Shown piece by piece: positions 12,594 through 53,561 of a stretch of 64,000 nt of DNA. The notes beneath the pieces are model-generated. The model was not told where the DNA came from and did not search any database. It saw nothing but the letters and a program-made list of their open reading frames with translations. The position numbers were made by a program, and so were the translations under genes. Position 1 is the first letter of the stretch; each line of letters starts with the position of its first letter. The DNA comes from Eledone cirrhosa (taxonomy: Eukaryota): contig CAXHJY010000307.1 in assembly GCA_964016885.1 (NCBI GenBank), forward strand, positions 62,001 to 126,000. The letters are read 5' to 3'.

Positions 12594-13802
12594 TATTGGA
12601 AGATGATTCTATTAGTAGAAATGGGGGAGGGAGTTGTGTGTATATGGGTGTTATGTGTGTGTGTGCGAGTATGTTAAGATGGAGAGAATATATATTTTGT
12701 GTGTGTGTATATATATATGTGTGTAGGAAAGTGGTTCTATTAGTAGAAATGGGGAGGGAGTTGTGGGTGTGGGGGTTGCTATGTGTGTGTATGGGTGTTA
12801 TGTGTGTGGGAGTATGGTTAGCATGTTAAGATGAAGAGAATATATATATATATATATATTGTGTGTGTGTGTGTGTAGGAAAGTGATTCCTTTAGTAGGA
12901 ATATTTTTGAATGAACATATTTTCCTTACTTATTCGTGTTTGCTGTTGTATTGCCAGTGCAAACGTATGTTAAGGTTTATTTAGTTCGGGTTTTTATTTT
13001 CTAAAGTAGAAGGTGTTATGTGTGTGTATGTCATATTATGGTGTTGACATAATGTATATTAAACCTTATTTAATGTTGGTCTATATTTTTGAATAAACAT
13101 ATTTTCCTTATTTATTCGCATTTATTCTGTTGTATTGTTAGCGCAAAGGTAAAATGGAAAGACTTGGAATTTGGGTGTCTTATTACTTGCGCAAATGTCT
13201 AGATGTGCACTTAGTGGTATCTGTCTCGTGGTTGGATCTCGTAATTGTTGGCGATGAACTGTCATTCTGTTTCTGAGTGTGAGTTTAGTTTGTCCTATAT
13301 AATCTTCATTGCATCCTTTACATTTAATGGCATAAAATAGATTTTTTGATGAGCAAGTGAAGTGATTTTTTACAGTAAAATTTTGTCCTGATTTAAATGT
13401 ATACGTGTTGCCTTCAATGAGGTGAGTGCAGGTTCCACGATTAGAGCGACCACATTTTTTGATACTTGGTTGTGGGTTTGTGGTAGGTAATTTGGCATTG
13501 GTGAGTAATGTTTTCAGTGATTTTGGTTGTCTTTTGCTTTTGATTATTTTGTGTGTTTCAAGGGCTTTTTTCATTCTTGGGTTTTGTTTTAGTAGTGGGA
13601 TGTTATTGTGAATAGTGTTGAATTTCTTGGGTTGTGTGTTGAGATATATGATAGAATATTGGACGTACCTTGAATTTGTTTCTGTTTCCGTAATTCATCA
13701 ATGCCTATTGCTTTAGCCCTTTCTATTCCATTATTTATTAGTAATAGTGGGTACTCTCTCTCGAGTAGAATTTCCTTTAATTCTTGAAGTCTTTTATTTC
13801 GC
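11513..13802 (-). mobile_element. 5'-truncated Penelope-like element: linker + GIY-YIG endonuclease + internally duplicated 3' region/pLTR
   Basis: CGRSNRGTC...FTCSSKNLFYAIKCKGCNEDYIGQT..LRNRMTVHRQQ; flanked by (TA)n; hammerhead motif near the 3' end. Confidence 0.85.
11653..11690 (-). ncRNA. Minimal type I hammerhead ribozyme motif, U3-A8 core variant
   Basis: CCUU-UUGAAAA-GCAG(aagaa)CUGC-GAAA-CCGG-UA/AAGG: stems I and II pair; palindromic ACCGGU stem III typical of Penelope HHRs. Confidence 0.7.
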
Positions 13803-14361
13803 GTACACATATATATATATACACATATATATACACACATATATATATGTGTATATATATATATGTGTGTGCATTTATATATCATCATCATCATCATCGT
13901 TTACCGTCCATGTTCCACGCTTGCATGGGTTTGGACGGGAGTTTTCCAACTTGAGGCAAGAGTGGTTGACTTGCTCGCATAGGACTGTCTGGCAGGTTTT
14001 CTACGGCTGGATGCCCTTCCTAACACCAACCACATTTACAGTGTGGGACTGGGAGGTTTTTACCGTGTTACCTACACGGCCACATTACAGCGTGGCCTGT
14101 GTGTTTTTTTGTCGTGACACCTACACGACCTCATTTGTTTCGGACTGGATGTTGTGGTACCAACATAACCTTACATTGAAAGGGGTGGGGGTAGTGGGAC
14201 GGGGGTGTATTTTTGTTAGAGGTGCCTACTGACTGTAGTAGGTTTCACTTTGTACTTATATATATATATATATAGTAATAATAATAAATTTGAAGACTAA
14301 AATCCAAAGAGGGCTCGATAAGGATAAATATATATCAAATATATAAGGACCGTAGAGCAAA

Positions 14362-14497
14362 TATTTATTAAAATAACAGATTAAAATTTAAGCAAAGAAT
14401 CGCTGCTTTCACCCTTAACGGGATCTTCTGAAAGATCCCTTTAAGGGTGAAAGCAGCGATTCTTTGCTTAAACTTTAATCTGTTATTTTAATAAATA
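14362..14497. repeat. Palindrome, 66-bp arms, 4-nt loop, 2 mismatches
   Basis: tatttatta...cccttaacgggatctt-ctga-aagatccctttaaggg...taataaata. Confidence 0.9.
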
Positions 14498-15451
14498 AAT
14501 AAAAAAAAAATATATATATATATATATACACACACACAAGGTGAAGGCACATGGCCTAGTAGTTAGAGCATTGGTCTTGCAACCAAAAAGTTGTGAGTTC
14601 AATTCTCAGACTGGGTGATGTGTTGTTTCCTTGAGCAAGACACTTTATTTCACATTGCTCCAGTTTACTCAGCTGTAGAAATGAGATAGGACTGGGGTCC
14701 CTACCATGCTACTGCAAAGTGGTCGTGGAGGTGTCATGGCAAAAAAGCACCCAGCCCATACTGTAAAGTGGACGTGTAGGCACCACAGACAAAAAGCACC
14801 CAGCACTAATTGTAAATGAGGGTTGGTGTTAGGAAGGGCATCCAGCTGTAGAAATCAAGCCAGAATCAGTTACCGTATGAGCAAGACAAGGTCAGCCGAT
14901 ACTGCCCACAACAGGAAGAACGGAGGTAAAACAGTGATGATGATGTGTGTATATATATATAACCATCCCACCATTGCAAGCAGGGTATATATACATGCAG
15001 TTGTACAGAAGACCAGACTGATATTGCATACAAACCTACTCAGTAGCACCATAATCCAATGTACACCCAACCCCACACACCCTACCCCATCCTCCGGTTC
15101 CCATTCCACTGTGTCGATGACACAACAGTCCGCACTGTAAGGTGGTCGTGTAGGAGATCAGGTAAAAAGGCTCCCAGTCCACACTGTAAATGTGGTTGGT
15201 GTTAGGAAGGGCATCCAGCTGTGAAAAACCTGCCAGAGACACTTCCGTACGAACAAGACACGGTCTCCCGACCATTCCCGCATCAAATGGAACAAAACCG
15301 TCTAACCCATGCTAGCGTGGAAGATGGACATTAAACGATGATGGTGATGATATATATATATGTGTGTGTGTGTGTGCATATATATGTGTGTGTGTGTGTG
15401 CATATATATATATATGTGTGTGTGTATGTATATATATATATATATATATAT

Positions 15452-17870
15452 TTAAGTATGGATCATCAGCTCGGTTTAAAAGCTGATTTCCGTTTGAGGT
15501 GAAACAAATTGTTCACAGAAATGGTGTATTAATGGTGCATTTATTTAAGAAAAAGGAATAGGCAGGATGTTAGGGAGGTAAGTCTTTAGAGAACAGAGAA
15601 ATTTGAGATATGGGTAGTTTAGAAATAGAAGTAAAATAGTCTCTTATGGGTGACTTTAGGGGTCATTGTTCATTCTAGTTTTAGTTTAGTCCGAAGTTTA
15701 GACCATTTAGTAGAGGTTAGAATTTGTTAATGAAGTATGTTTACTTATTAGTGCGTTAGATGAAAGAAGCGTTGTCTATGAATTTGTAAATGGGGAAAAT
15801 TCTAAACTTTGGTAGTTAGTCAGGTGCACAGTTGGCGATATGTTCACTAAAAGCAATCTTTCTGTATTCCTGTATTTTGATTTGTGATCTTTGGATGGTC
15901 ATACGTTGTCGGAGGCTGCTTTTTGTCTGTCCTGTGTAGTGTTCTTGACAACCTGAGCAGGTCAAAACATAGATTAGGTTTTCAGATGCACATGTAAAGT
16001 TGTATTTAACTGTGAAATGTTGTCCTTGTTTAAACTGGAATGATGAACTTCTATTAGATTTATGCATATGCCACAGTTAGGCCTTTCGCATTTTTTTACT
16101 GTAGGGTTCATTGTGAAGGTTGGCTGGATTTTGACTTGTGTGTGGATTTTTTTTATGGATTTAGGTTGTCTTTTGCTCTTTATGATGTGTGTGTTTGGAG
16201 GATTTTATTCATTCTTGGCTCTCTTTTTAGTAAAGGAATGTTCTGGAGGATGGTGTTGAATGCCTCATTGTTGAGGGGTGGTGTGTGGAGATGTATGGTA
16301 GAGTTTTCTGTTTTGGTTCATTCCTTGGTTTGATTCCTGGATGTTGAGTTTTAGGGCACGTTGGAATCCATTGTTGATTAGGGAAGGTGGGTAATTTCTG
16401 CTAAGAGTGTTCTTTAATTCTTCTAGTCATGTGTAGCATGTGTATTTATCAGAAACTATTGTACAGATCCTTTGGGTTAGGTTATAAGGAATTGCCATTT
16501 TGGTATGGCGAGGGTGGCACGAGTTAAAGGGAAGATATTGTTTGGAGTCTGTGGGTTTATAGTATATGTCTGTTTCTATTTTGTTATTTTTCTTGATGAG
16601 GATGTCAAGGAAAGGGAGTTGTTCATGGCTGTATTCCATTGTAAATTGAATGTTTGTGTTGAGTCCATTTAGAAGTGTTTTAAACTCAATAAGTCTTTCT
16701 ATACTTTCATGCCAGAGGATGAAGCAGTCATCCAGATATCTCTTCCAGTTTTTTTCTATGTTTAAGTAGAAGGGGTTTCCGTATTTGTCTAGAACTTTTC
16801 GGTAGAGAGTGGTTTCCAAATATCTCATGACAACGTTGGCTTATGAGGGGGCAGTCCCTGATTTCTGTCTGTAGTATTTGGCATTGAATTCGAAGTAGTT
16901 ATTCTCCAAGATAAATTTGAGACCCTCCATCACAAATTCTTTAGGGATGCGCTGTGGAAGTTCATTAGGGTAATTTTCAAGCCAGAATTGGATTGCCTCT
17001 ATACCTAGGTTGTGTGGGATATTGGAATAAAATTGATTACATCAAAGGATTCTAGTAGGGTATGTTCATTATTAAGTGTTATTGGGAGGTGGTTGAGCAT
17101 ATCCAAGTCGTCCCTTATGTAGCTTTTAATGTGTTTCAGGAATGGTTTAAGCAGGATATCTAGGAAGTTGCTTAGGCGGTGGGTTTCACAAATGGTACCT
17201 GATATTATGGGTCTTAATTTGAGGTATTTAGGAGGGGGGATATTGATGAAAATGTCTGTGGCTTCCTTGCAGGTCCTGCCTATTTCTTCGCTTTTGTGTA
17301 TCTTTGGGATACCGTAGAAAAGGCTGTGTCTGCTTTTGAAGTTAGTGATGTAGATATATGTAAGACCTTCTTTGTAAAGGGTTGTTAGAGATTTTAGCTT
17401 TCTCATTATTTTCTGTTGGCTGTAGTGTTGAGCCTTTTCGTAGTATGCTTCGTTTTCTAGAGTTCAGAGTACTAAGGTTGTGTAGTAATCTGTCTTCATA
17501 AGGACTACTGCACTCCTTTTATCTTCCTTTATTTCGGCGTAGTTTGGGTGTTGGGGAGTCAGTGTAAATTTCAGACCTTTGGGGAGTATGTTGATTTGGT
17601 CTGTTGTTAATTCTTTAGGAGTTAAATTAACGATTTTTATTTCATTTAGTATCTCCTGTATGTTTTGTGTTATCTCGTTACCCTGTGTCTGTGTGCTATG
17701 TCTAAAAAATGACTACGGAAGTTGTGGTGGATGTTGAAGTTTGGTTGTCTCTTATGGTTGTATTGACCCCTGCTGTTGTTGTTATAGGGTGTGTAGCTGT
17801 GGTGGTTGTTGTGTGGTGTTTGGGTGGTGATTGGGTTTTCTTGTTATTTTGGTTTTAATATGTTCTTTTT
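15452..17870 (-). mobile_element. Near full-length degenerate Penelope-like element (RT + GIY-YIG)
   Basis: FYGIPKIHK, LRPIIS, SFDVIN, RYLDDCFILW, QLPFLDIL, YYKPTDSKQYL..SCHP, FTCASENLIYVLTCSGCQEHYTGQT; frameshifted. Confidence 0.92.
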
Positions 17871-17999
17871 GCATTAATTTTAACTCTTCTTATTAATAAC
17901 TGCATTGTTTCTTTCCAGGAACAATGTTGAAAAATAAACCTAATTTAGTCATTCTATGAGTATCTTGGTCAGCCTATGAACTTTTCAGCTAACCCTCAT
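17871..17999. mobile_element. Mariner-type MITE half overlapping the TPR-TIR stop codon
   Basis: Highly similar to the right half of the complete element at 34005-34204; TIR tatgaacttttcagctaaccctc. Confidence 0.75.
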
Positions 18000-20145
18000 T
18001 GGTTAAAAAATTTAGAATATTTTCAATATCATCTATGCATCCACTTTTGCATTTCACTTGAGGAAATATTTTCAAATGTTGTGGCATGTCCATGTTTTCA
18101 TAGTTATTTATAATAAATAGTTGTCCAAATTCTTGTTGTCGTTCTGCCATGGCTTGTTTGGCATATTTTGTATGTTTTAAATACTCTTCTGACATATTAT
18201 TGGACTTTTCTAAAAGGATACCAATATTGCAACTGTTTAACAATATTCTGTGAAGATTTTCATTTTTAAGTTTTCCCAATATATAGTCTTCGTTACCAAA
18301 TGTAGTTCTCAAACCAAAATATTTTTCCAGATTATTTCCAATACTATTAGCCAGTTCTTCACTATTTGGGGATGTTACAATATAGATATCATAAAGAAAA
18401 TTTATTATGTTGTCATTATTTGAATGTTCTGGCATTAATTCATTACTGGATTCTGACTTATAGCAATGATACAGATCATAACACTTTCTGAAGTACATTT
18501 TACTAAATTTAATTTGTTTGGAAAGGAAATGCTTAGCTAAATTCATATAAATTTCTTTCTTGAGCTTTATGTGAATTTCATGAGGCTTATCTGTTAACTT
18601 CAGATACATATTAGCTTTAACATATTCCTTGTTTTTACAGAACTTTTTTATCTTCCGTGAAAATTCACTCTTTTCACATTTCTGGAGAAGTTTATCATAA
18701 AGTTCTCCATCAGGCAGTTGTTCTACTGACTGAATTATTTCCAAAAGATGACTATTATATTCCTGACAGCCATTTTCATATATATTAGTCATCATTTTCT
18801 TTATTTGCCAAATGTCTTTCAGCCTCTCTTGGAAAGGAAGAAATTCTATAGCAGCATTAACAGCCGTAAGAAACATATCTGCTCCGTCAACTTTTAATTC
18901 TTCTTTTATCTCGTCATTGTTTTCTTCATCTGCTTGTAAATAATATAATTTACCCAACACAATGTAAAATTTAACAAAATCTACTTCATTATCTGGTTTA
19001 TATTTTTCCGAGTACTTCATAGCATTTTTATATTCTTTCAGAGATATATATAATAATAACAAATCATAAACAACAGCTGAATTTGCGGGACCAATTTTAA
19101 GAGATTGTTCATAATGATATTCAGCTTTGTCAATAAATGTATCTCTTTTAAACACCAGGAAGTCTTCAGGACATTTAAGTAAGCGTCCAATCAAATTTTC
19201 TTCATTTGAGAAATTTGGCTTTTTTTTGAAATAAGAATTTGGATTTGATTTTTTTATATACAATAAGCCAAGATGATGATGGGAATATGACGTTTCATTA
19301 ATTTCAATTGCTTTTTGAAACAATTTTTGTGATATTTCAAAGTTATGATTAATTCTATAAAATTCAGCAGTTTTTTCCAAAACAAAACGATCATTAGATG
19401 AAATATGAAGAGCTTGCTGAAAGTAGGGTTTGGGTTGAGAGGATTTTTCATGAAATAGCCATCTTGTCATTTTAAACAAACCCAACAGTGTTAATGTTCG
19501 TGCCATTAGAGTTTTGTTAACATTGTGGGGGTAAGCCTGTCGTATTTTCTCTAAGCACTGGAATGCCTCTTTAGTATTTTTAATTTTTTCGTCTTTATCA
19601 AGTGATTTTTTATCCATGCGATAGTGTAACAAAGCTATTGAAAAAAGGTTTTTATATTTGTTTGGACAAACATCAGAAATCTCTTTCAAAATTTTAAGAG
19701 CAATATTATAACTCTTAAATGATGATGACCTACTTAAACAGTAACAAACATTACTTTTACCTTCAGCTTCTAACTTTGCAAAATCCTTTCTTTTCTGAAG
19801 TTTCTCAAGATGATCCAAAACCTCAGTTAGTTTATTTATATTTTCATTGTACAAATGAATGAATGCTAGATTAGTTAATGCCACTAAATTGTCTGGATTT
19901 TTCTTTTGAACTTCAGTGGCTAATTCTTCAGCTGCAGTTTGTTTCTTTGTTTCCCACATAAGAAATACTTTGAGATTTATCAAATAAGTCTCATCTGCTG
20001 AATCCAATATGTCAGAATTTGATGAATTTTCAATTTTTTGGTAAAGGGCCAACCAAGAATCTTTATTGAAATCAAATGTATAACTCATTATATTTGGAAA
20101 AATTATAATTCTTTCCCGGTACAATTGTAGTGCACTTTCAATATC
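17989..20145 (-). CDS. TPR-TIR protein (IFIT/TTC22-like TPR array + C-terminal TIR), copy B, large exon 2 (718 aa)
   Basis: 2.2-kb open frame in AT-rich DNA. TPR helices (NPDNLVALTNLAFIHLY; AEFYRINHNFEISQKLFQKAIEI; YSHHHLGLLY; AEYHYEQSLKIGPAN). TIR box pattern YDIYIVTS...LANSIGNNLEKYFGLRTTFGNEDYILGKLKNENLHRILLNSCNIGILL. Polypyrimidine acceptor at 20146-20147. Confidence 0.9.
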   Translation of the reverse strand, partial: DIESALQLYRERIIIFPNIMSYTFDFNKDSWLALYQKIENSSNSDILDSADETYLINLKVFLMWETKKQTAAEELATEVQKKNPDNLVALTNLAFIHLYNENINKLTEVLDHLEKLQKRKDFAKLEAEGKSNVCYCLSRSSSFKSYNIALKILKEISDVCPNKYKNLFSIALLHYRMDKKSLDKDEKIKNTKEAFQCLEKIRQAYPHNVNKTLMARTLTLLGLFKMTRWLFHEKSSQPKPYFQQALHISSNDRFVLEKTAEFYRINHNFEISQKLFQKAIEINETSYSHHHLGLLYIKKSNPNSYFKKKPNFSNEENLIGRLLKCPEDFLVFKRDTFIDKAEYHYEQSLKIGPANSAVVYDLLLLYISLKEYKNAMKYSEKYKPDNEVDFVKFYIVLGKLYYLQADEENNDEIKEELKVDGADMFLTAVNAAIEFLPFQERLKDIWQIKKMMTNIYENGCQEYNSHLLEIIQSVEQLPDGELYDKLLQKCEKSEFSRKIKKFCKNKEYVKANMYLKLTDKPHEIHIKLKKEIYMNLAKHFLSKQIKFSKMYFRKCYDLYHCYKSESSNELMPEHSNNDNIINFLYDIYIVTSPNSEELANSIGNNLEKYFGLRTTFGNEDYILGKLKNENLHRILLNSCNIGILLEKSNNMSEEYLKHTKYAKQAMAERQQEFGQLFIINNYENMDMPQHLKIFPQVKCKSGCIDDIENILNFLTNEG

Positions 20146-21733
20146 CTGAGTGAAAAATAGAAAGTGTATTAGATATATCATTATTTTTATCAATCTCATA
20201 AAATATATTTATCAGATATGATTTTGTTTATTAATTGAAACAAGGTTAAACCCTTTTTGTATCTGATAGAGCTGATGTACTCTGGGGACCAAAATAATAG
20301 GGGGGGGGGGGTGAATAAGCAGAGGAGCTGGAATAAATGGGGTTGTTGAAAAAACAAAGGGGGAGCTGGAAATCAGTAATTTTTCTAGGTTGTCTCCATT
20401 GATTTTTTTTTAAAAACTAGAATTAGTCGTTTAGTTTACATATTGAGACCACCCCAACTCATCCTATTTATTTCATGACATACGAGATTTCTAGTAATGT
20501 AGTTTTTTGTCATGTATAATTTAGCTGGAATTAGATTAACAGAATTTAATAAGCATGGGGGTGGGGTGGAAAAATTTGAAAAATTAATAAGTGGGTGTGT
20601 GCGGGGGGTGGCATTATTCGAGACCCGAGAGTTGTTGATGCTCTTTTTAGACTTCTACAATTTCATGTCAAAGTGGGAAGAAATGGAGTGCTAGACAGTG
20701 CAAGTTTTGGGATAGAAGGATTGGTTAGAATGTTAAGTACTATCTAACATGTATGTTGGTGTGTATGTGATTATTTCTAATAATGTATATGTGTGTGATG
20801 ACTACTATATTACTCTATATATGTGTGTGTGTGTTTTTAGATCCTTGACAAGGTCTTGGTTGGCAAATTTGAACTCATTCCATGATCTTCGCCACTCTTC
20901 CTTCAGATCAAAGTTAATCTTTAACAGATATTTTTTTGTCCAAATAAGGATAATGGAAATTTTTTAGGCAAGCCAACATGTTCGCAGCATTACCACGAGT
21001 GATGGCAAGGCTAAGGCGCTGAAACAACAAACTTTAATTCAGACAGTATTTATAGGATTTTGCTAAATATTCTTACCCCAGCACATTAGCCACAAAATAG
21101 ACTGATAGACAAAGAATACCGAAAATAAAATACGGTAAATTTATAGAAATATATCTTCACCGATTTTCGTGGAAAATAATTATTTTTTAATCGTGTGCTA
21201 TCAATTAAACTTACCTCCTAATATGGCGCAAAGGAGTTTTTGCCCAGTGAAAAGGGCCGAGGGGATAATCCTCAAACGTTTCACCCCGCCGTCCCGGAGT
21301 TTTCTTTACCATTTTTTTCCCCTTCCTTTTTCTGAGTGCTACCTCCTAACATGCTTGCAAAAGAAGGAAAATGGAGGGACACACACGGCATTGTTCCCAC
21401 ACCCTCCTGGTGTTTTCTTTATACCCTAATCCTAACCCTAACTCAAACCCCTATTCTAACCTAATCCCAATTCTAACTCAGGGGCTTTACAGCATGTTTG
21501 GAGGTAATATTAGTTGGTAGCACACGGAAAAAAAGGGGGGGGGGAGTTGAACGAGACTTCCCGGGGAAAAGTCCTTTGTACCATATTAGGAATTAAGTTT
21601 AATTGATAGCACACGATGAAACAAAACAAAACAAAAAAACACTCACACAGAAAATAAATTATTTCCCGCTGAAATCAGTGAAGTCATTTTTCTATAATAC
21701 AACTTAAAATACTGTATGTATTCGGATACTTAC

Positions 21734-21787
21734 GAGAAATACTAATTCTTGTAATTTTCTGGCGATGTTCTCTGTTTCTTTCTCCAT
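21734..21787 (-). CDS. TPR-TIR protein copy B, short coding exon 1 (MEKETENIARKLQELVFL)
   Basis: ATG at 21787, 54 nt, gtaagt donor at 21733; phase 0 splices in frame to DIESALQ at 20145, giving 736 aa. Confidence 0.75.
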
Positions 21788-22876
21788 GTTTTTGGTATTA
21801 ATAAAATAAGGAAATAAAAACACAGCTCGTGGCAACAAAAACTTCTGTCTGTCTTGCTTTCTTCTTACACACTTTTATTCTTTTCTAAGACATAGAAATG
21901 TATAGAAAAGATATATAGTAACTTAAAATACGATCGAAATCTGTGTTTTATAAAAGTTTGAAGTAGAAAATAACAACAGTGTAGTAATACTTATGTATCT
22001 TTTTATAAGTGTCTCTTATCTGAAATTAAACGAACATTAAATTGAGAGAAAAATGCCAACTACCTTAAATCAATCTATGTAAAGACGGAAGTGAAAATAC
22101 GTTTTCCGGATAATGGGTGGGATACTAAGTTTTAAAATGTCTCCTAGCTACTTTCATTTTATTGTTTTGCTAGTTTCAATTACTAGATTGTGGCCATGCT
22201 GGGGTACCGATTTAAAGCGATATAGTCGATCATTTAAAATCCTCTCCCAAGTTACCCCCCTGAAAATTCGCATTATGAGATTGTTGTTGTTGTTATACTC
22301 TTTTACCTGTTCCAGCCATCTGGCTGAGGCCATGCTGGGGCACCGCCCTTAAATAAGTATCATTTTAATTATATTCAGTTTTCATCGCCAATATACTTTC
22401 TTGACAGCTTCAAATAAAACCAGAAAGTTGCAACTTTAATAAAGATGAAAAAAAATAATAATACAAAACAAAATAATTGTTTCTACTTTAGGCACAAGGC
22501 CAGCAATTACCCAGTGCATTACTGGTACTTTATTTTATCGACCCGGTAAGGATGAAAGGCAAAGTCAACCTCGGCGGGATTTGAACTCAGATCGTAAAGG
22601 GACGTAACTATGCTGGAAAGCATGGCGTCCGACCCTCTACCGATACTGCCAATCCACCAAAATAATTAAGACTTGTTTGATTCACAGAATTCACAAAGAA
22701 AAGGCACGCCTTCTTACCTTTACGAACATCTGACTATGTTAATGCCCACATTTTCTTACTATTTCTAGTGATACTGCTATTGATAAATAATTACGACAAT
22801 AAAATGGGAAGAGTAATTCTTCTCTCGCTGTTTCTTTATTCTGTGTTTATGGTTTATGTTAATTGTTATATAAATA

Positions 22877-25853
22877 GAGTTACCGCCCTTTGCCGATACA
22901 ACTCCAACAAGGCGTGATGAAGTGAGGGACTAAAACAACTAAGAATGGAAATGACTAGGTCATTAAAAAAAAATGGAAATACCATTCTACAGATTCCAAT
23001 TATGAAAATATATAAAAGACTAAAGAAAAGGTTTAAAAGGTAAATAAAACAAGCCAAAAATTATTTCTGGGCTAGCAAAGCTAACCTGGAGTCCATGGGT
23101 GATATATGTGACATATACAACTCAATGATCAAACCCCACAAAACGGATCAAGAGTTATTGATACATAACCACAATGGTGAGGTAATCTCAGACACTTCCA
23201 AACTCTCTTCGATATTTACAGAATCATTTTTTGGCAATGCTTCATTTACAGAATCCACTACCTATTACAAAGCTTCTGATCCTTTCACTCCAAACACAGA
23301 TCTCCCTCCCATTATTGAACAAGAACTACTAGCAATTATGGATGAATTAAAATGGAAACAGCCACAGGCCCAAATGGAATCATAAATGAAACATGGAGAG
23401 TAATACATGAAATAGTGCTAAACTTATTTAATAGTATAATTAAATTTCAACACCATCCAGATATATGGAAATTTACTCACACGTCAGTAATACCGAAACC
23501 AAATAAATATAACTACCACTCTACCAGATCATACCATCCAATAGCTTTACTAAGCAATCTTTCTAAAATACTAGAAAAAGCTTTAGGCAATAGATTATCT
23601 TACTTAGGAGAGGCAATGAACATTTTCCCCAAATCCCAGTTTGGATTTTGAGTAAATAAAAACACTGAGAACTGTGTACATGAAATAACCATATTCATCA
23701 GAAACTCAAAACTCTTGAAAAAATGGACCAGCTTGATCTCACTAGACATAAAGTGAGCTTATGACAATTTGGTTCATGATACTCTAGTAAAAAAATTATA
23801 TAAATTTGAAATCCCAAAATATCTCTCTAACTGGGTTGAAAGCTTTCTCACTCATCATAGTACAAGTCTGATTTTTGGAAATGAGAAAAGCAAAAACATT
23901 TACCTTTTAAAGGGTCTCCCACAGGGATCGCCATTCTCACCCATTCTCTTTCTATATTACACAACAGACTGATCTCTAAATAAAATTGTAGAAGTATCAG
24001 ATTTTGCAGATGATATCAACTTATATACTTCATCCAGTTTCATCAACAACAACTGCAACTGAATGGGCAAAAGAAAAACACAACTGGTTCATTTCCATAA
24101 TCCTGAATTCATCAATTATCAATGCAATGAAATATGCTGGATGAACCCACTTCTGATACCACAAAAATCCATCAAGACACTAGGCATTTGGTTACAATCT
24201 GACTTGAAATGGGAAACTCATCTCAAACACACACTAAAAAAATGACTTCAACATGGCATGCAATTAAAGTAATCTCAAAGAAATTCCAATGTCTAACATA
24301 CAACCACTTGAGACTGTATAATAAGGGAGTCATCATCACTCAATTGTTGTATGGCAGCTGGGTTTGGAGTCACATAAGTACTAGTTGTCTTCAAGCTATT
24401 GATAGATTCCGTACCGAAATTGGCAAAAACTATACTGGGATGCCTAAGATCTACTCCCAAGATAGCAAGTTCTCATGAGCAGGGTTAACCTCAACTCACT
24501 TGTTGATAGAAGATTCCAGGAAACATAAATTGCTAACTGCTCAGTTTAAATGCAGCATGATACTTGGCTTCTTCCATGGAAGAAGCCAAGTATCATGTTG
24601 ATTTCTTTTGCATTTAAACTGAGCAGTTAGCAATTTGCATTTCCTCTATCAACAAGCGAGTTGGGGTTAACCCTGTTTTAAAGTAATGATCAAAAGCACA
24701 AAAGAGGAAACAAAGGAACTCCATAACACTATCACAGAATCAATCTCTTTTAACAGTTGGCTCTGCTACACAGATTGGGGACATTCAGACAAGAGAGTGG
24801 GTTGGGAAGGCACTTGGTCTTTCAAAAGTAATTATAAAGATATGAACTTCAGATTACATCGGGATTACACTATATTTGATGCAGAATTGTGGGGAATTAC
24901 ATTATCCATAGATTCAGCTAAGGAATTTCCCTGGAAAAATGGTTTTCTATTTACTGACAGTCTATCAAACCTAGAACTGCTTCAGTCAAGAAAAAGGGGT
25001 CGGGTTAGAGATATTGAGAACTCTCTGCTAAAAATAGATAACTACCTCCCAGAAATTAATAAAGAATTAACAGTGATTTGGATAGTGGGCCATACAGATA
25101 TTAGAAGTAATAGGAAAGTAGACAAATTAGCAAAAGAAGCACAAAGGAAAATAATAAATATAGACTCCATCCTAAATCTTTCACAGGTAAAATCATTTAG
25201 CAAATAAATAATTAGTCAAGTGTGGGAAACATTTTGGAAAGAATCCAGAGATAAGCTCACAAATTTCAGTTCCCCACTTTCTCAACCAGATTTGACAACA
25301 TTCAAAACTTATCGATCATTGAGTAATGCAAATAAAAAAAGACTATGCTGGCTTCCAACTGGACATATACCTTTCAAATACATTCAATCAAGAACAGGTT
25401 GTAGAGATTCACCTCTATGTTCTTGTGGTGATTCTCCAGAAACTCTTTGGCATTATTTGTTCCCATGCAGAAACTATCAGTCTGAGAGAGAGGCCATATT
25501 GAAACCAAGATTGTAAATTCAATATTTGATTACAGGTCTACCAAATATAAATAAAATCTTTGAGTACATGGAAGCTATGAAAAGATTCAACAAGAGAAAC
25601 TTCTAGCAGTTTTACAGCTTCCCAGTTTCCTATTTTCTTTTTCGTTTTCTTAGGCATAATCTGCCTTCCATTGGCCTTCAATATTTGAAATGTTATTTTA
25701 TTTTTTCTCCCTTTTCTCTTTTTTTATTTTATTTTTATTACTTGTCTCATTAGCTCTTTTTGATTACCAACTGTAAAGAGTACTCGATACTTCCCCGAGA
25801 CTGCATTGGCTTACTAGCTCTATACAGACGTTTAAATTGAATAAATAAATAAA
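22877..25853 (+). mobile_element. Duplicate of the RT-RNase H LINE relic
   Basis: Same ORF fragments as 4676-7652. Confidence 0.92.
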
Positions 25854-27257
25854 GTATATATATAAATAAATATAATATTGAGAGGTGAATACACAAAACA
25901 ATGTGTTTTCAATTACAGTGGGTATAAGACCACTAGAGTGAAAAACAAACTACAAAAGGCTTGGGAAATACATTATAATTAAAAAGATAAACACAAGTTT
26001 TTAACTCCATTGCTTCATTTGATATATATATATATATATATAGATATATATTCATGTATATACTTGTGTAAAAGTTGAATCTTTTGGACCATATTTTAAG
26101 GTTAAATTTATAGGCTTGACTGTTACATGTCTACTAGTTTTGGGGATATTACTATTTGAAATTCAAGCTAGAATCCAAAGTACCATATCAGTAGCAAAAG
26201 CTCAACTTATCTCTAAATGAATAAAAACAAAGACACATTAAATTAGTGTTACTTCTATGTGCAGGATGATACCTTGACCACAAATGTTGACCAGTTATAC
26301 TAGGATTGACTTATGAAAAATTCCAGATTTTTTTAGCCAAAAATAGGACGCCGACTTTTACCTGAGATCAACCAATACTCGAGTGTACATCGTATACAAG
26401 GTATGTCAGAAAATAAATAGGACTGGGATCATAAAAAATATTTCAAATCCAAACTACAAGTTTTCCCCTTCGAAATAATCCCCCTTGAGTGTAACACACT
26501 ATCCTTCTCCACCACACCTCCATGCACTTCTGGAAGGATTCTCTGCAGCTCTATCATCTGGGACATCCTGATGGCTTCCACATCAGAAAATGGGTCCCCT
26601 TAATGACCCTCTTGAGCTTGAAGAAAAGGAAAAAAAAATCACAGAGCCTAGTCGGGTGAGTAGGGAGGTCGTTCCACCATGGCGATGTTCTTCTCAGTCA
26701 AGAACTGCCAGATGCTCAGGGTGCTGTGTGCTGGCACATTGTCATGGTGAAGCAGCCACAATTTGTCCTGCTATAACATTGAACAAAGCGATCGCTGCAG
26801 GATCTTTTTGTGAACATACTGGTTGATTATCAGGCCCCATAGCAAAATCTTCATGTAGTTGATTCAAGAATGTGATCAATATGAGTTTTGTCTTTGGATT
26901 TCAACTGTCTTGCTTTTTTTTGGCCTCGGCAAATCTGGACTCATCCACTGAAGACTGTGGGTCATACTCGAAGATCCATGGTGACTCACCCCAGCAAGTC
27001 TGGTTTGGTTTCAAGACAATCTAAGATGTCTTGACATCTCTATATCTGCTGCTCCTTCTGGTCATTGTTCAACACCGACTTCGCACAAATCTTCCGTATG
27101 TCCAAATCTTCAGTTATAATCTTACAAAGGCTGTTGTGGTTAATGCCCAGCTCACTCACGATCAGTCAGCAGTTTAAATATATATAAACATATAAATATA
27201 TATAAATTATTTCCTCAGTGCTTTCATAAGTTTGAAAATTTGAGCTTCACATGCAAC

Positions 27258-27294
<37 letters not shown>

Positions 27295-28509
27295 AACGAT
27301 CAACTTTCGTCAAATCGAACCGGAAAAACAATGTTTCCATTGATCTTTCCAATTGCTAATACTATCTATTGGTCGCAACTCCAGGTAGAAGGAGCAACGT
27401 GAAATAATGTGCCTTGCTCAAGGACATAATGCATCGCCCTGTCCAGGAATCGAACTCATAACCTCACGATTGTGAATCCGATTCTCTAACCACTCAGCCA
27501 CGCGCCTCCACACACACACACACACACACACATATATGTTAATTTCAAATATGTTATTGAAATTAATATATAACAGCTGTGTGTGAATATGTATGTACGT
27601 GTGTGTGTGTGTGTGTATATATCATCATCATTACTATTTAACGTCTATTTTTCCATTTTCCATGCTTGCATGGAGACAATGTGAGACAAGTCAGATGAAA
27701 TAATCATGTTTTGCTCACACAGAACTGTTTCTGGCTTTGTTTCTGCAGCTGGATGTCCTTCCTAATGCCAATCACATATACAGCATGGACTGGATGCTTT
27801 TTATCATGGCATCAAATGTGTATGTGTGTGTGCATGTGTATGTCTGTGTGTCTGTGTGTATTAGCATACTACATTTCAAAAGAGTTCATGGTAAAAATAT
27901 ATTAGAATTAATTCCTTGATTAAAACATTCTATGTAATGCTGTCCGAATCTTTGAATTTCCTTTTGTCATTCCAGCCATTGCTAAATTTAATATTACATT
28001 CAATAATGTTATTGTATACTTTCTGTAATTGTTTTCAAACCTATATCCATTAAATATTCATGATATTGTTTTACTGAGATATCAGTCTTTGGACTGCTAT
28101 TGAGATTCATACTCTGTTGTTGATCTTGTTCAACATAGATGAATTGGTAATTACAGTATAAATAGATAGCTATAGATAGACAGTCAAAAAAACAGATAGC
28201 CAGGCAGGCAAATAGATATAAAGATAAGTAGGGAGACAGATAAAGAGACAGGGAGTCTCACAATTAGGTTGGTAGCTAGACAGATAGATACATGCATACA
28301 TAGATATATATATTCACACACACACATAGATAGACAGCCAAGATGGCTGGATAGGTAGATAGATAGATAGATAGGTAGACTGTTATATAGATATACATAC
28401 ATATCAAATGTGTTGTTTTTATTGTCCGAAGATATTTTTGTTTATATAAATACTTATGTATGAATAAATAATATATGCATGTATATATAAATATATGTCT
28501 CTCCATAAA

Positions 28510-28835
28510 GGGTAAAGACCCCCTTTGGTCAGGAGTGATCATGGGATTGGCACCTAGAAATTTCCTTCCGAGGCACAAGTCTGAGCAAGGTTGTATGTGG
28601 AAGACCAGCAGTTGTCCATGCATACTAATCTCCCCTCTCCATGCCACAAATGATGTCTGAGAAAGACAATGGCCAATACAGCTTGACACCAGTGACGTCG
28701 CAACTCATTTCTACAGCTGAATGAACTGGAGCAACCTGAAATAAAGTGTCTTGTTCAAGAACACAACGCAAAGCCTGGTCCGAGAATCAAACTCACAATT
28801 GTAAGCCTGATGCTTTAACCACTAAGCCATGCGCC
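28510..28835 (-). mobile_element. tRNA-derived CORE-like SINE family 2 (5'-clipped copy 10304-10620; relatives ~9170-9306, 14540-14690, 27376-27508)
   Basis: ggcgcatggcttagtggttaaagc A-box head, gtgttcttgaacaagacacttta CORE-like motif. Confidence 0.75.
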
Positions 28836-47817: not shown

Positions 47818-48044
47818 TGATAGGAAGAAAGGAGCAAAGGAATCTTCCTTTTCTCCTTTCTTCCTATGACTTCTGTGAGCCAACACACTTCTAGCTGCTG
47901 ATTTCTGTCCTTTGAGGTAAATTTTACCAGACGCAGCCATTGACAGCATTTTGCTGTTTTAACAGCTCCCTTGCATTGAGTTTTTCCCATTATCCGACGA
48001 GTTATATATATATGTGTGTATGGAAAAGTAGATGGGAAAATGAT

Positions 48045-50777
<2,733 letters not shown>

Positions 50778-51149
50778 GGGGGGGGGGGGTTGACCGCATG
50801 TTGTAGAGTGTGGTGGAGGGGGAGAAGATATTAAGGAGCGGGAATTAAGAGTTTGAAATAATAACAAATATATTTAAAATATTGTATGAGAGAAGAATAG
50901 GTTTAAGTGAGATCCTCGAATTTAACAAACAAAAATACAAGATTTGTTTAGTAAAATACGCCAAAAACTTTCGTATTTAACATGAAATGACGAAATACAA
51001 GATTTGTTTTGGAAAATACGAGATAGGATACATAGGAAATAGGATGGAATGGCTAGTAGTGAAGAAGAATTGGAATGAGGATAGAAATGCTATAGGGTTT
51101 GGAAGGACTATGAAATTAAGCGGATGTTAGAAAAGTTAGAAAAATATGA

Positions 51150-52044: not shown

Positions 52045-53515
52045 GAGTTGCCTACTGACTGTAGGTTTCGCTTTGTACTTAGGCAAGGCGGGTCTTCCGT
52101 ATTACTGTGTAGCGCCAAAGATCTCGGTCCAGTGACATTGTCTTGGAGAGGTGTAAGTGTGTGAGGTCGGAATTTATCAAGTCGTCCCAGGTTTTTCTGG
52201 GTCTGCCTACTCCGTGGCTACCGTCTATTTTTATCGCCCTGCACTTTTTTTATACAGCTGTCGTCTTTCATGCGCATCACGTGACCGTACCAACGTAGTC
52301 TTCTCTCGAGTAAACAACATCTGATCCCTCTTGTTCCTAATTTCTCCCTTAGTTCGTTTATGCTCTGCCGTTCACGTATATTACTATTACACATCCAGCG
52401 GAGCATGCAAGCTTCGTATATCCTCTGCACACAATGCCCAGGTCTCACTGCCATGTAACATTGTTGTTCGTATGCAGGCATCATACATCCTGCCTTTCAT
52501 TTTTAGAGAGAACCCTTTAGCGGCCAATAGTGGTATAAGCTCTCTGAACTTTTTCCATCCCATTCTGACTCTAGCTACTGTACTTTCAGAGCACCCTCCC
52601 CCACTGCTGATTTTGTCACCCAGGTAACGGAAGGTGTCTACTATTTCTATAGAACCATCTGTGCAATGGAATGAGCTAGTATTCTGTGGGCACTTGCTGC
52701 TACTTATTGCACCAGAACACCGGCCACATATAAAATCTATATTCTTAGTTAGCTTACCTGTGATCCCACTACATCTTTTATGCACCCATACTTTGCATTT
52801 GGGACATAAAATGGAGTTTCTGCCTACTCCTTTCCTACACACTGAGCATGGCCATTTCCCAGATGGGACCGGTGCCCTATTTTCCTTCCTACAAACTAGA
52901 ACTTTAGTCTTAGACAAGATAACTGTAAGGCCTTTTGATTCTAGGCCATGCTTCCATGTTTGGAATTTCTTCTCTAGTTCAGCCATTGATTCAGCTATGA
53001 GCGTTAGATCATCTGCATATAGGAGTTCCCATGGGCAGCCGATCTTGAACTCCTCTGTTATAGCCTGAAGGGTAATAATAAATAGTAGGGGGCTAAGAAC
53101 GGAGCCCTGATGAACACCAACTTTTACGCTAAACTCTTCACTATATTCGTTGTTAATTCTAACCTTGCTGACTGTTTCTTTATACATGGCTTGTATAGCT
53201 CTCACAAGCCATTCATCAACACCTAGTTTTCTAAGCGCCCACCAGATAATGGAGCGGGGGACTCTGTCAAAGGCTTTCTCCAAGTCGACAAAAGCTAAGT
53301 ATAAGGGTTTACTTTTAGCTAGGTACTTCTCTTGTAGTTGTCGTACAATGAAAAGAGCGTCTGTGGTACTTTTACCTGACACAAACCCGAACTGCATTTC
53401 ATCTAGATCAATTCGTTCTCTGATTAGTTGCGCTATTACTTTTTCTGTGACCTTCATGACCTGGTCGATTAATTTAATGCCTCTATAGTTACCCCTATCA
53501 AGAGCATCGCCTTTA
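52045..53515 (-). mobile_element. 5'-truncated RTE-clade LINE (RT with Cys-rich PHD-like insert)
   Basis: MQFGFVSGKSTTDA, FVDLEKAFDRV, GVHQGSVLSPLLF, LLYADD, RRLRWYGHVMR; one frameshift near 52410. Confidence 0.95.
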
Positions 53516-53561
53516 CATATATATATATATATAAACGTTTAACCATCTGGCAGGAAGGTAT

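Follow-up and report, generated by a model that had tools for sequence, protein, structure and literature searches.

IFITs have been described as an innovation of jawed vertebrates that arose together with interferon, and in mammals their first exon codes only for the ATG and 2 nt, with the genes arranged in tandem clusters (PMC3688568). Invertebrate chains uniting TPRs and a TIR domain are represented by a "TIR-TPR" class already listed in the oyster (PMC4346834) and by the ecTIR-DC families of cytosolic TIR proteins (cited in PMC6321704 and PMC5549309); the accessible parts of these sources, which include molluscan examples, present them by domain labels, without a link to IFITs or a function. 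Oyster TIR-STING and SARM1 likewise join a sensor and a TIR in one chain, with a different sensor domain, and their TIRs are reported to act on NAD+. In bacteria, TIR-TPR defence proteins (BcTir/Tpr, 10.1101/2023.05.26.542521) combine TPRs with a TIR in anti-viral defence, using generic TPRs and consuming NAD. No description of an IFIT-TIR protein was found in the literature searched.

Here, we describe a gene at positions 17989-21787 of a 64,000-nt stretch of Eledone cirrhosa DNA (the window), which is spliced and encodes a protein predicted to consist of a complete IFIT fold and a TIR domain; with a probability that we put at about 0.55, this protein acts as a cytosolic sensor of RNA 5′ ends that signals by TIR-TIR assembly. 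The invertebrate host supposed in the preliminary description is indeed a mollusc, and it is not known to have a vertebrate-type interferon system.

The gene comprises two exons on the minus strand (21787-21734 and 20145-17989), joined in phase 0 and encoding 736 aa; the reading frame and the splice sites agree with the tiny ATG exon and giant second exon described previously. The intron acceptor directly before 20145 reads ...TCACTCAG. Contig 26, from run X4, reads across the predicted junction; within this run the depth of the spliced contig was 60.6 compared to 2.1-3.9 for four intron pieces among those listed. X4 was judged to be RNA-like because of the presence of this spliced contig, no sequencing run being on record as RNA. 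The contig carries the allele of four sister copies and not that of the 17989-21787 copy; at the five substituted positions no allele specific to the latter was seen in X4, whose contigs drop rare variants. The transcript expected across 21734/20145 was hence found as the sister-copy allele. Since the end of a contig is not a start site, the 5′-UTR length in Table 1 is a lower bound. The IRF/ETS-like pattern found upstream has 22 matches within the window. The highest 19-residue hydropathy window of the exon 2 product is 1.41, therefore the protein has no clear transmembrane segment, as had been supposed. With regard to the IFIT-like exon layout also proposed, two exons with nearly all of the coding sequence in one are shared with IFIT1/IFIT5, whereas an exon 1 of 18 codons ending in phase 0, instead of the ATG plus 2 nt of mammalian IFITs, leaves a loose likeness.

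Table 1. Features of the IFIT-TIR gene and its surroundings (window positions; residues in exon-2 numbering).
Feature	Positions	Strand	Basis or remark
Neighbouring tandem copy, 732 aa type, cut by window start	1..3586	-	one of four identical upstream copies
TIR domain, residues 585-718	17992..18393	-	separate fold prediction, structure matches
Exon 2, coding part, 718 codons + stop	17989..20145	-	stop codon 17991-17989
Segment joining the IFIT fold to the TIR: extra helices (to ~residue 560), low-confidence linker (564-578)	18394..18657	-	predicted model
IFIT-fold TPR region, residues 6-496	18658..20130	-	predicted model, profile, Foldseek
Intron, GT-AG, 1588 nt	20146..21733	-	skipped by X4 contig 26
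Exon 1, coding part, ATG + 17 codons, 54 nt	21734..21787	-	phase-0 GT donor, GTAAGT
Exon 1, 5′-UTR part, at least 288 nt	21788..22075	-	contig 26 of run X4, covering 21736-22075
IRF/ETS-like 10-mer	22087..22096	+	12 nt past spliced contig end; a weak lead

Five copies of the gene, this one included, stand in tandem, a further likeness to the clustered IFIT genes, and one distant paralogue is present besides. The preliminary description does not mention the tandem copies. Exon 2 of the 17989-21787 copy differs from that of the other four by five substitutions, all of which change the residue and which are too few for inferring selection; in addition, the BB-loop residues Asp-Tyr-Ile 620-622 (exon-2 numbering) are present in this copy alone, the three residues being missing in the other four. 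The four upstream copies are identical across exon 1, intron and exon 2 within a contig of 144 kb, as might be observed if the array were partly an assembly artefact, which would concern the copy number and not the gene. We regard this as unlikely: the units are unequal in length (spacing of 17.8-19.1 kb), their flanks are 98.7-99.9% identical rather than 100%, and in three DNA-like runs, all from one sample, the allele of the 17989-21787 copy makes up ~1/5-1/4 of the contig depth (a weak measure) at position 19442. Tandem amplification and the large sets of paralogues would fit an immune gene.

The predicted model of the protein (pLDDT 87.6) contains an IFIT-type TPR fold over ~450 residues, including the N-terminal subdomain. 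The whole fold aligns end to end with that of the IFITs, residues 6-496 of the model being superimposed on residues 9-471 of IFIT1 with a Z of 21.9 and an rmsd of 4.2 over 421 aligned residues. The VIA Z was 18.8-21.9 for 12 IFIT1/5 entries and did not exceed 15.2 among the other TPR proteins, and ranks 1-12 of the Foldseek search were all IFIT1 or IFIT5. A family profile built on 56 sequences found IFIT5 (E 1.5e-32) and IFIT1 (1.7e-32) as its top natural matches in the PDB, followed by OGT (1.3e-16), with the best stretch against IFIT falling at the IFIT N-terminus; sequence identity to the IFITs is only 14-18%. In the predicted model, the N-terminal ~510 aa are thus an IFIT fold and not generic TPRs, and the earlier proposal that the TPR part is nearer to IFIT than to generic TPRs holds (Z 21.9 vs 15.2 for the best non-IFIT TPR). 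The ~590 aa of TPR helices originally reported are helical, although they are now divided into the ~510 aa of the IFIT fold and ~65 aa of extra helices and low-confidence linker. These helices and the TIR domain distinguish the octopus protein from the TPR-only IFIT chain.

The octopus protein also retains part of the RNA-channel residues, including those of the core. The positions matching the IFIT5 contacts K150, R186, R260 and H287 are occupied by R139, R176, R264 and H290 (exon 2; 157, 194, 282 and 308 in the full-length protein) and are among the most conserved columns of the family: all four residues are kept in 38 of the 56 members and three of them in another 14, counts in which the residues of the octopus protein are favoured, since it served as the query for collecting the family. 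At 14 IFIT5 RNA-contact or binding-mutant positions, mapped by eye from the alignments, seven residues are identical or conservative (K150/R, Y156/Y, R186/R, Y250/F, R260/R, H287/H, L291/L), at an eighth, T37, Lys stands where IFIT1 has R38, and six are changed (E33/A, Q41/S, R253/E, Y254/K, K257/E, Q288/H), R253 being important for 5′-ppp binding in IFIT5. With several contacts altered, the octopus protein may bind a ligand other than the 5′-ppp RNA of IFIT5.

These changes, together with an IFIT part without net basic charge (69 K+R vs 72 D+E), would also agree with a TPR part that binds a protein or another non-RNA ligand, the whole acting as a TTC22-like TIR adaptor in Toll-type signalling. 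In a language-model feature search with a TIR-less Octopus relative, TTC22 clusters appeared at ranks 7 and 14 with near-equal similarity (0.96, compared to 0.97 for IFIT), so that the kept residues could be a shared signature of the fold; the likeness to TTC22 is one of features, and the TTC22 clusters listed (496-514 aa) are TPR families without a TIR. Yet the IFIT clusters slightly outrank TTC22, and the conserved basic columns of the family coincide with IFIT RNA contacts: K/R make up at least 70% in only eight of the 718 columns of the alignment, five of which map to K150, R186, Y254, K257 and R260. We consider the non-RNA adaptor quite improbable.

As for the C-terminal part, folded alone it gave five strands with helices (pLDDT 91), and in a structure search of 48,161 chains the top 17 matches were TIR domains, with Z up to 14.9. 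The family profile matched the TIR of chicken TLR15/TLR2 with an E of 1.8e-8 over this part. The last ~135 aa are accordingly predicted to fold as a TIR domain, whose first strand begins at 18393, in keeping with the TIR placed at ~18396-17992 beforehand. The Pfam scan of the octopus protein returned TPR models and no TIR, and TIR_2 was found in seven of the 56 family members, the octopus protein not being among them. In the last 143 aa, three weak Pfam matches with E of 0.05-0.16 were dismissed as noise. Family TIR domains carry the box-1 Asp in 51 of 66 cases, and the box-2 Asp and Gly in 40 and 41. A BB-loop Pro-Gly is a hallmark of the TLR/MyD88-type adaptor TIR; the proline position holds Leu (Leu-Gly) in the octopus protein and Pro in 25/66 family members.

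NAD+ cleavage, which the preliminary description had kept as an option for the TIR, is unlikely because the position of the NADase catalytic Glu (helix alphaC) is occupied by His658. An NADase role, in which the TIR would answer a triggered sensor by producing a signal or by killing the cell, as it does in SARM1, TIR-STING and the bacterial TIR systems, is in our view very improbable. SARM1 and oyster TIR-STING have TIRs of similar fold, with Z of 14.2 and 13.9, at most 1 Z below the best match, and catalytic TIRs are reported to be common among non-TLR animal TIRs; in all the reported cases considered, however, activity depended on the catalytic Glu, and the octopus TIR has no Glu at residues 655-664. 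In the family, two of 66 domains have a Glu in the catalytic column, which was anchored on a member aligned to TLR6; the alignment is gappy in this helix and a Glu stands at column 660 in 15/66, so a shifted Glu is possible in some members. Bacterial TIR-TPR clusters scored 0.87-0.89 in the feature search, under the lead level of 0.9, and are an analogy.

Under the main reading, that of an RNA 5′-end sensor, the IFIT channel of the protein would take up foreign single-stranded RNA by its 5′ end, as we infer from the conserved contact residues; binding may then release or cluster the TIR, which would signal as a scaffold through TIR-TIR assembly and not through NAD+ cleavage. Animal TIR adaptors work by MyD88-type recruitment leading to NF-kB/IRF output, and by analogy a MyD88-type adaptor could be recruited here with the same output. 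A role as a receptor would follow from this scheme.

The gene is no lone oddity but belongs to a widespread family of invertebrates. Relatives with both the IFIT fold and the TIR are present in gastropods, bivalves, a hemichordate and lancelets, and the C-terminal TIR is kept in 66 of the 117 proteins examined, across molluscs and deuterostomes. Several Octopus paralogues lack it. These have the length of an IFIT (474-510 aa) and share a common end point in three Octopus species; in a tree of 34 proteins, a quick version with SH-aLRT only and a midpoint root, for which proteins with an organism name were mostly picked, they are nested among members that carry the TIR. This nesting indicates that the TIR-less, IFIT-length relatives arose within Octopus. 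Two word-indexed protein searches (7 and 10 matches) returned Octopus proteins, bar one generic TPR protein. A scan of 21 representative matches for further fused domains, 19 of them lacking the TIR and two having long C-terminal extensions, detected no Death, CARD or caspase domain at E 1e-6; six of the 21 were generic TPR proteins outside the family.

The TIR-less paralogues would fit an antiviral effector of the IFIT kind, which captures the 5′ ends of RNA and prevents translation, while the TIR is only a localiser, a decoy that dampens Toll signalling, or dispensable. The divergence of the TIR, which escapes Pfam in most of the family, and the BB-loop deletion in four of the five tandem copies, including one seen as transcript, point the same way. 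Against it, the retention of the TIR across molluscs and deuterostomes with conserved box-1 and box-2 residues indicates selection on this domain, and we hold the effector to be unlikely, if the least so of the alternatives to a signalling sensor.

The predicted shape of the octopus protein suggests that the IFIT type predates the vertebrates. A complete IFIT fold in molluscs, a hemichordate and lancelets, conserved RNA channel included, would place its origin in the bilaterian ancestor, and the TIR fusion suggests that it started as a sensor wired to signalling. More tentatively, and with odds that we place below even, IFIT-TIR proteins would be ancient bilaterian cytosolic receptors of RNA 5′ ends signalling via TIR, from which vertebrate IFITs, and perhaps TTC22, descend by a loss of the TIR that was repeated independently in Octopus. 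The octopus gene offers a concrete candidate mechanism by which molluscs may sense the ends of viral RNA and, although they lack interferon, mount a response like that to interferon; the TIR-bearing, BB-loop-deleted and TIR-less forms in octopuses are natural variants for comparison. A sea-urchin match, P0029, retains one of the four core pocket residues and has a TLR-like TIR with the Glu and a long branch; therefore no echinoderm membership is claimed. By language-model features, an echinoderm TPR+TIR cluster reaches 0.97 and serves as a lead.

The focal gene lies on the minus strand, and the layout proposed in the preliminary description, a tiny ATG exon followed by one giant exon, was confirmed: 18 codons are joined in phase 0 to exon 2 across an intron of 1588 nt, giving a product of 736 aa. 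A contig of the sequencing run X4 (2515 nt, depth 60.6) spans 17961-20145 and then 21736-22075, with two letters in between, a jump that matches the predicted exon junction, and the four intron pieces listed for this run reach depths of 2.1-3.9. From this pattern of spliced contig and low intron depth we consider X4, a run carrying no RNA label, to be RNA-like. The gene is real and spliced; however, the contig bridging the expected 21734/20145 junction shares two deletions, of 9 nt and of 3 nt, with the sister copies, and therefore documents transcription and splicing for the gene family, not for the focal copy itself.

The nearest proteins, from Octopus bimaculoides and O. sinensis, align over the full length with 53% identity and are annotated as uncharacterised; they place the host among the octopods. 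The focal protein alone gave weak matches to IFIT1/IFIT5 (E 4e-4 to 7e-4, the top 5 of 9), and the 56-member family profile matched IFIT5 with E 1.5e-32 and IFIT1 with 1.7e-32, far ahead of OGT (1.3e-16) and preceded only by an engineered consensus TPR, its best-matching stretch being the N-terminal 190 residues of IFIT. For exon 2 as modelled by AlphaFold2 (mean pLDDT 87.6), Foldseek placed IFIT1/IFIT5 at ranks 1-12, and structural alignment gave Z 18.8-21.9 over 12 IFIT1/IFIT5 entries, the best covering 421 residues end to end; the highest-scoring non-IFIT TPR protein reached 15.2, and IFIT2 15.0. The TPRs are thus nearer to IFIT than to generic TPRs, as had been supposed, and the TPR part is, in the predicted structure, an IFIT fold. 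The gene itself is not classed as an IFIT, because it has an extra domain and a different intron.

The C-terminal domain was missed by Pfam in the focal protein, and Pfam TIR_2 was found in 7 of 56 family members; the family profile matched the TLR15/TLR2 TIR with E 1.8e-8. Modelled on its own (pLDDT 91.2), this part retrieved the TIRs of Hydra TRR-2, IL-18R-beta, MyD88 and MAL with Foldseek, and in VIA the top 17 among 48,161 chains were all TIR domains (Z 14.9 to 11.9), in agreement with the TIR assignment made at first sight. After placing helix alphaC via a relative alignable to TLR6, His658 (676 in the full protein) was found at the catalytic Glu position, a column with Glu in 2 of 66 family TIR domains. 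According to the accessible part of a preprint (10.64898/2026.04.20.719644), animal TIRs require this Glu for cADPR production. The domain is a TIR lacking the catalytic Glu, and its action as a NADase is very improbable; since fold matches to adaptor and enzyme TIRs are about equal, the scaffold reading rests on the absent Glu. As judged from models and sequence, the focal protein combines an IFIT fold with a predicted non-catalytic TIR in one chain.

Fourteen IFIT5 positions, drawn from the accessible parts of PMC9677429 (including Table 5) and PMC13197388, were mapped by eye via HMMER alignments: seven are identical or conservative in the focal protein, one is Lys, at the place of R38 in IFIT1, and the remaining six differ. 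Among these six, the R253 position has Glu followed by Lys, and the K257 position has Glu, with K/R in 75% of the family. In exon-2 numbering, R176 (IFIT5 R186) is Arg in 51/56 members, R139 (K150) and R264 (R260) are K/R in 49/56 and 50/56, and H290 (H287) is His in 50/56, counts to be weighed against the collection of the family with the focal protein as query. Eight of 718 alignment columns are at least 70% K/R, and five of these fall on IFIT5 contacts. The net charge of the IFIT-fold region is not basic, which counts against an RNA channel. Our best reading (probability about 0.55) is that the protein senses RNA 5' ends in the IFIT channel, as the sequence suggests, and may signal, by analogy, via a TIR adaptor. 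From the conserved contacts, single-stranded RNA would enter the channel 5' end first; once bound, it would cause the TIR to be released or clustered, and the TIR, as in animal TIR adaptors, might recruit an adaptor and lead to NF-kB/IRF-type transcription. The same fold could instead serve an IFIT-type translation blocker with the TIR as accessory or decoy, a rather unlikely option, and a TTC22-like protein-binding adaptor seems more doubtful still (feature scores TTC22 0.96, IFIT 0.97).

Searches of the genome (3.0 Gb, 1796 contigs) agree on six matches: five tandem copies on the focal contig, spaced by 17.8-19.1 kb, and one paralogue on contig C17, with 40-44% identity and the C-terminal domain present. 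Exon 1, intron and exon 2 are identical among the four sister copies (732 aa), from which the focal copy differs by one exon-1 and five exon-2 substitutions, an additional Arg and three additional residues in the TIR BB loop. Since the focal BB loop agrees with both Octopus orthologues, the deletion in the sister copies is probably derived. The deleted allele is the one observed as transcript in X4, and could have altered signalling or act as a decoy.

Features of the window and of the C17 paralogue locus (stretch L014)
Feature	Position	Strand	Remarks
Open reading frame	17989-20208	minus	739 codons
Exon 1, coding part	from ATG at 21787	minus	18 codons; closes at GTAAGT donor
Exon 2 acceptor	immediately before 20145	minus	pyrimidine-rich, CAG at end
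BB-loop residues absent from sister copies	18281-18289		include conserved box-2 Asp
Tandem segmental duplication	1-10620 and 18186-28826; G000:C334:750-90826		five units of ~18-19 kb, 98.7-99.9% identical, each with an intact gene copy
Broken retroelement pieces	13122-17712		directly downstream of the gene; one with GIY-YIG domain (Penelope-like)
Separate X4 contig	16500-17911		depth 164
RNase H fragment of decayed retroelement	24671-25207 and 6470-7006		duplicated along with the repeat unit
Short interspersed repeat	22472-22659		very high-copy; ~400 nt upstream of spliced contig end
AT-rich microsatellite	47900-50900		~3 kb; GC 0.09 across 48001-50000
LINE-type frame	52387-53538		383 codons; reverse transcriptase and PHD-finger
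Similar LINE-type frame	L014 923-2098		close to C17 paralogue
C17 paralogue frame	L014 4941-7130 (G000:C17)		729 codons directly after likely acceptor, one codon off focal-gene position; 13-residue insertion following first TIR strand

A search of the representative set returned 110 proteins. An iterated profile from three octopus seeds, built from the same 117-protein set that it was applied to, detected the C-terminal domain in 66 of the 117, query included, against 16 in the first round. An organism was assigned for 22 of 30 proteins examined: gastropods, bivalves, Octopus, a sea urchin, the hemichordate Glandiceps and two Branchiostoma proteins. The four core pocket residues are all present in one lancelet protein, with three in the other and in the hemichordate protein; the sea-urchin protein, with one of four, was rejected as a member. 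The family spans molluscs and invertebrate deuterostomes. In the accessible text of PMC3688568, IFITs are confined to jawed vertebrates, lancelet and acorn-worm BLAST matches having been rejected by a neighbour-joining tree, with maximum likelihood similar.

The novelty of the family, put forward for testing in the preliminary description, holds in part. In the portions available, a 'TIR-TPR' class is named in oyster (PMC4346834), the label recurs in PMC9334734, and ecTIR-DC families, of unknown function, are cited by PMC6321704 and PMC5549309; no invertebrate IFIT-TIR protein occurs in the corresponding portions of PMC7075850, PMC6723221, PMC11103948 and 10.1101/2023.05.26.542521. Full-text literature searches, with most subscription journals outside their coverage, yielded no description of one, and supplements (PMC4346834, preprints) may list members. 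The TIR and TPR labels are hence partly known already, and no published mention of the IFIT identity or of its evolutionary significance came to light.

TIR-less relatives (474-510 aa) likewise occur in Octopus species; they end where the IFIT fold ends, and several bear the automatic name 'IFIT-like'. A quick, midpoint-rooted tree of 34 proteins places them inside the octopus clade and leaves the TIR-bearing C17 paralogue outside their group (support 99), a nesting that points to secondary loss of the TIR. A Batillaria relative, P0012 (1941 aa), holds two full IFIT-TIR units in one predicted protein, which may be a fused gene model.
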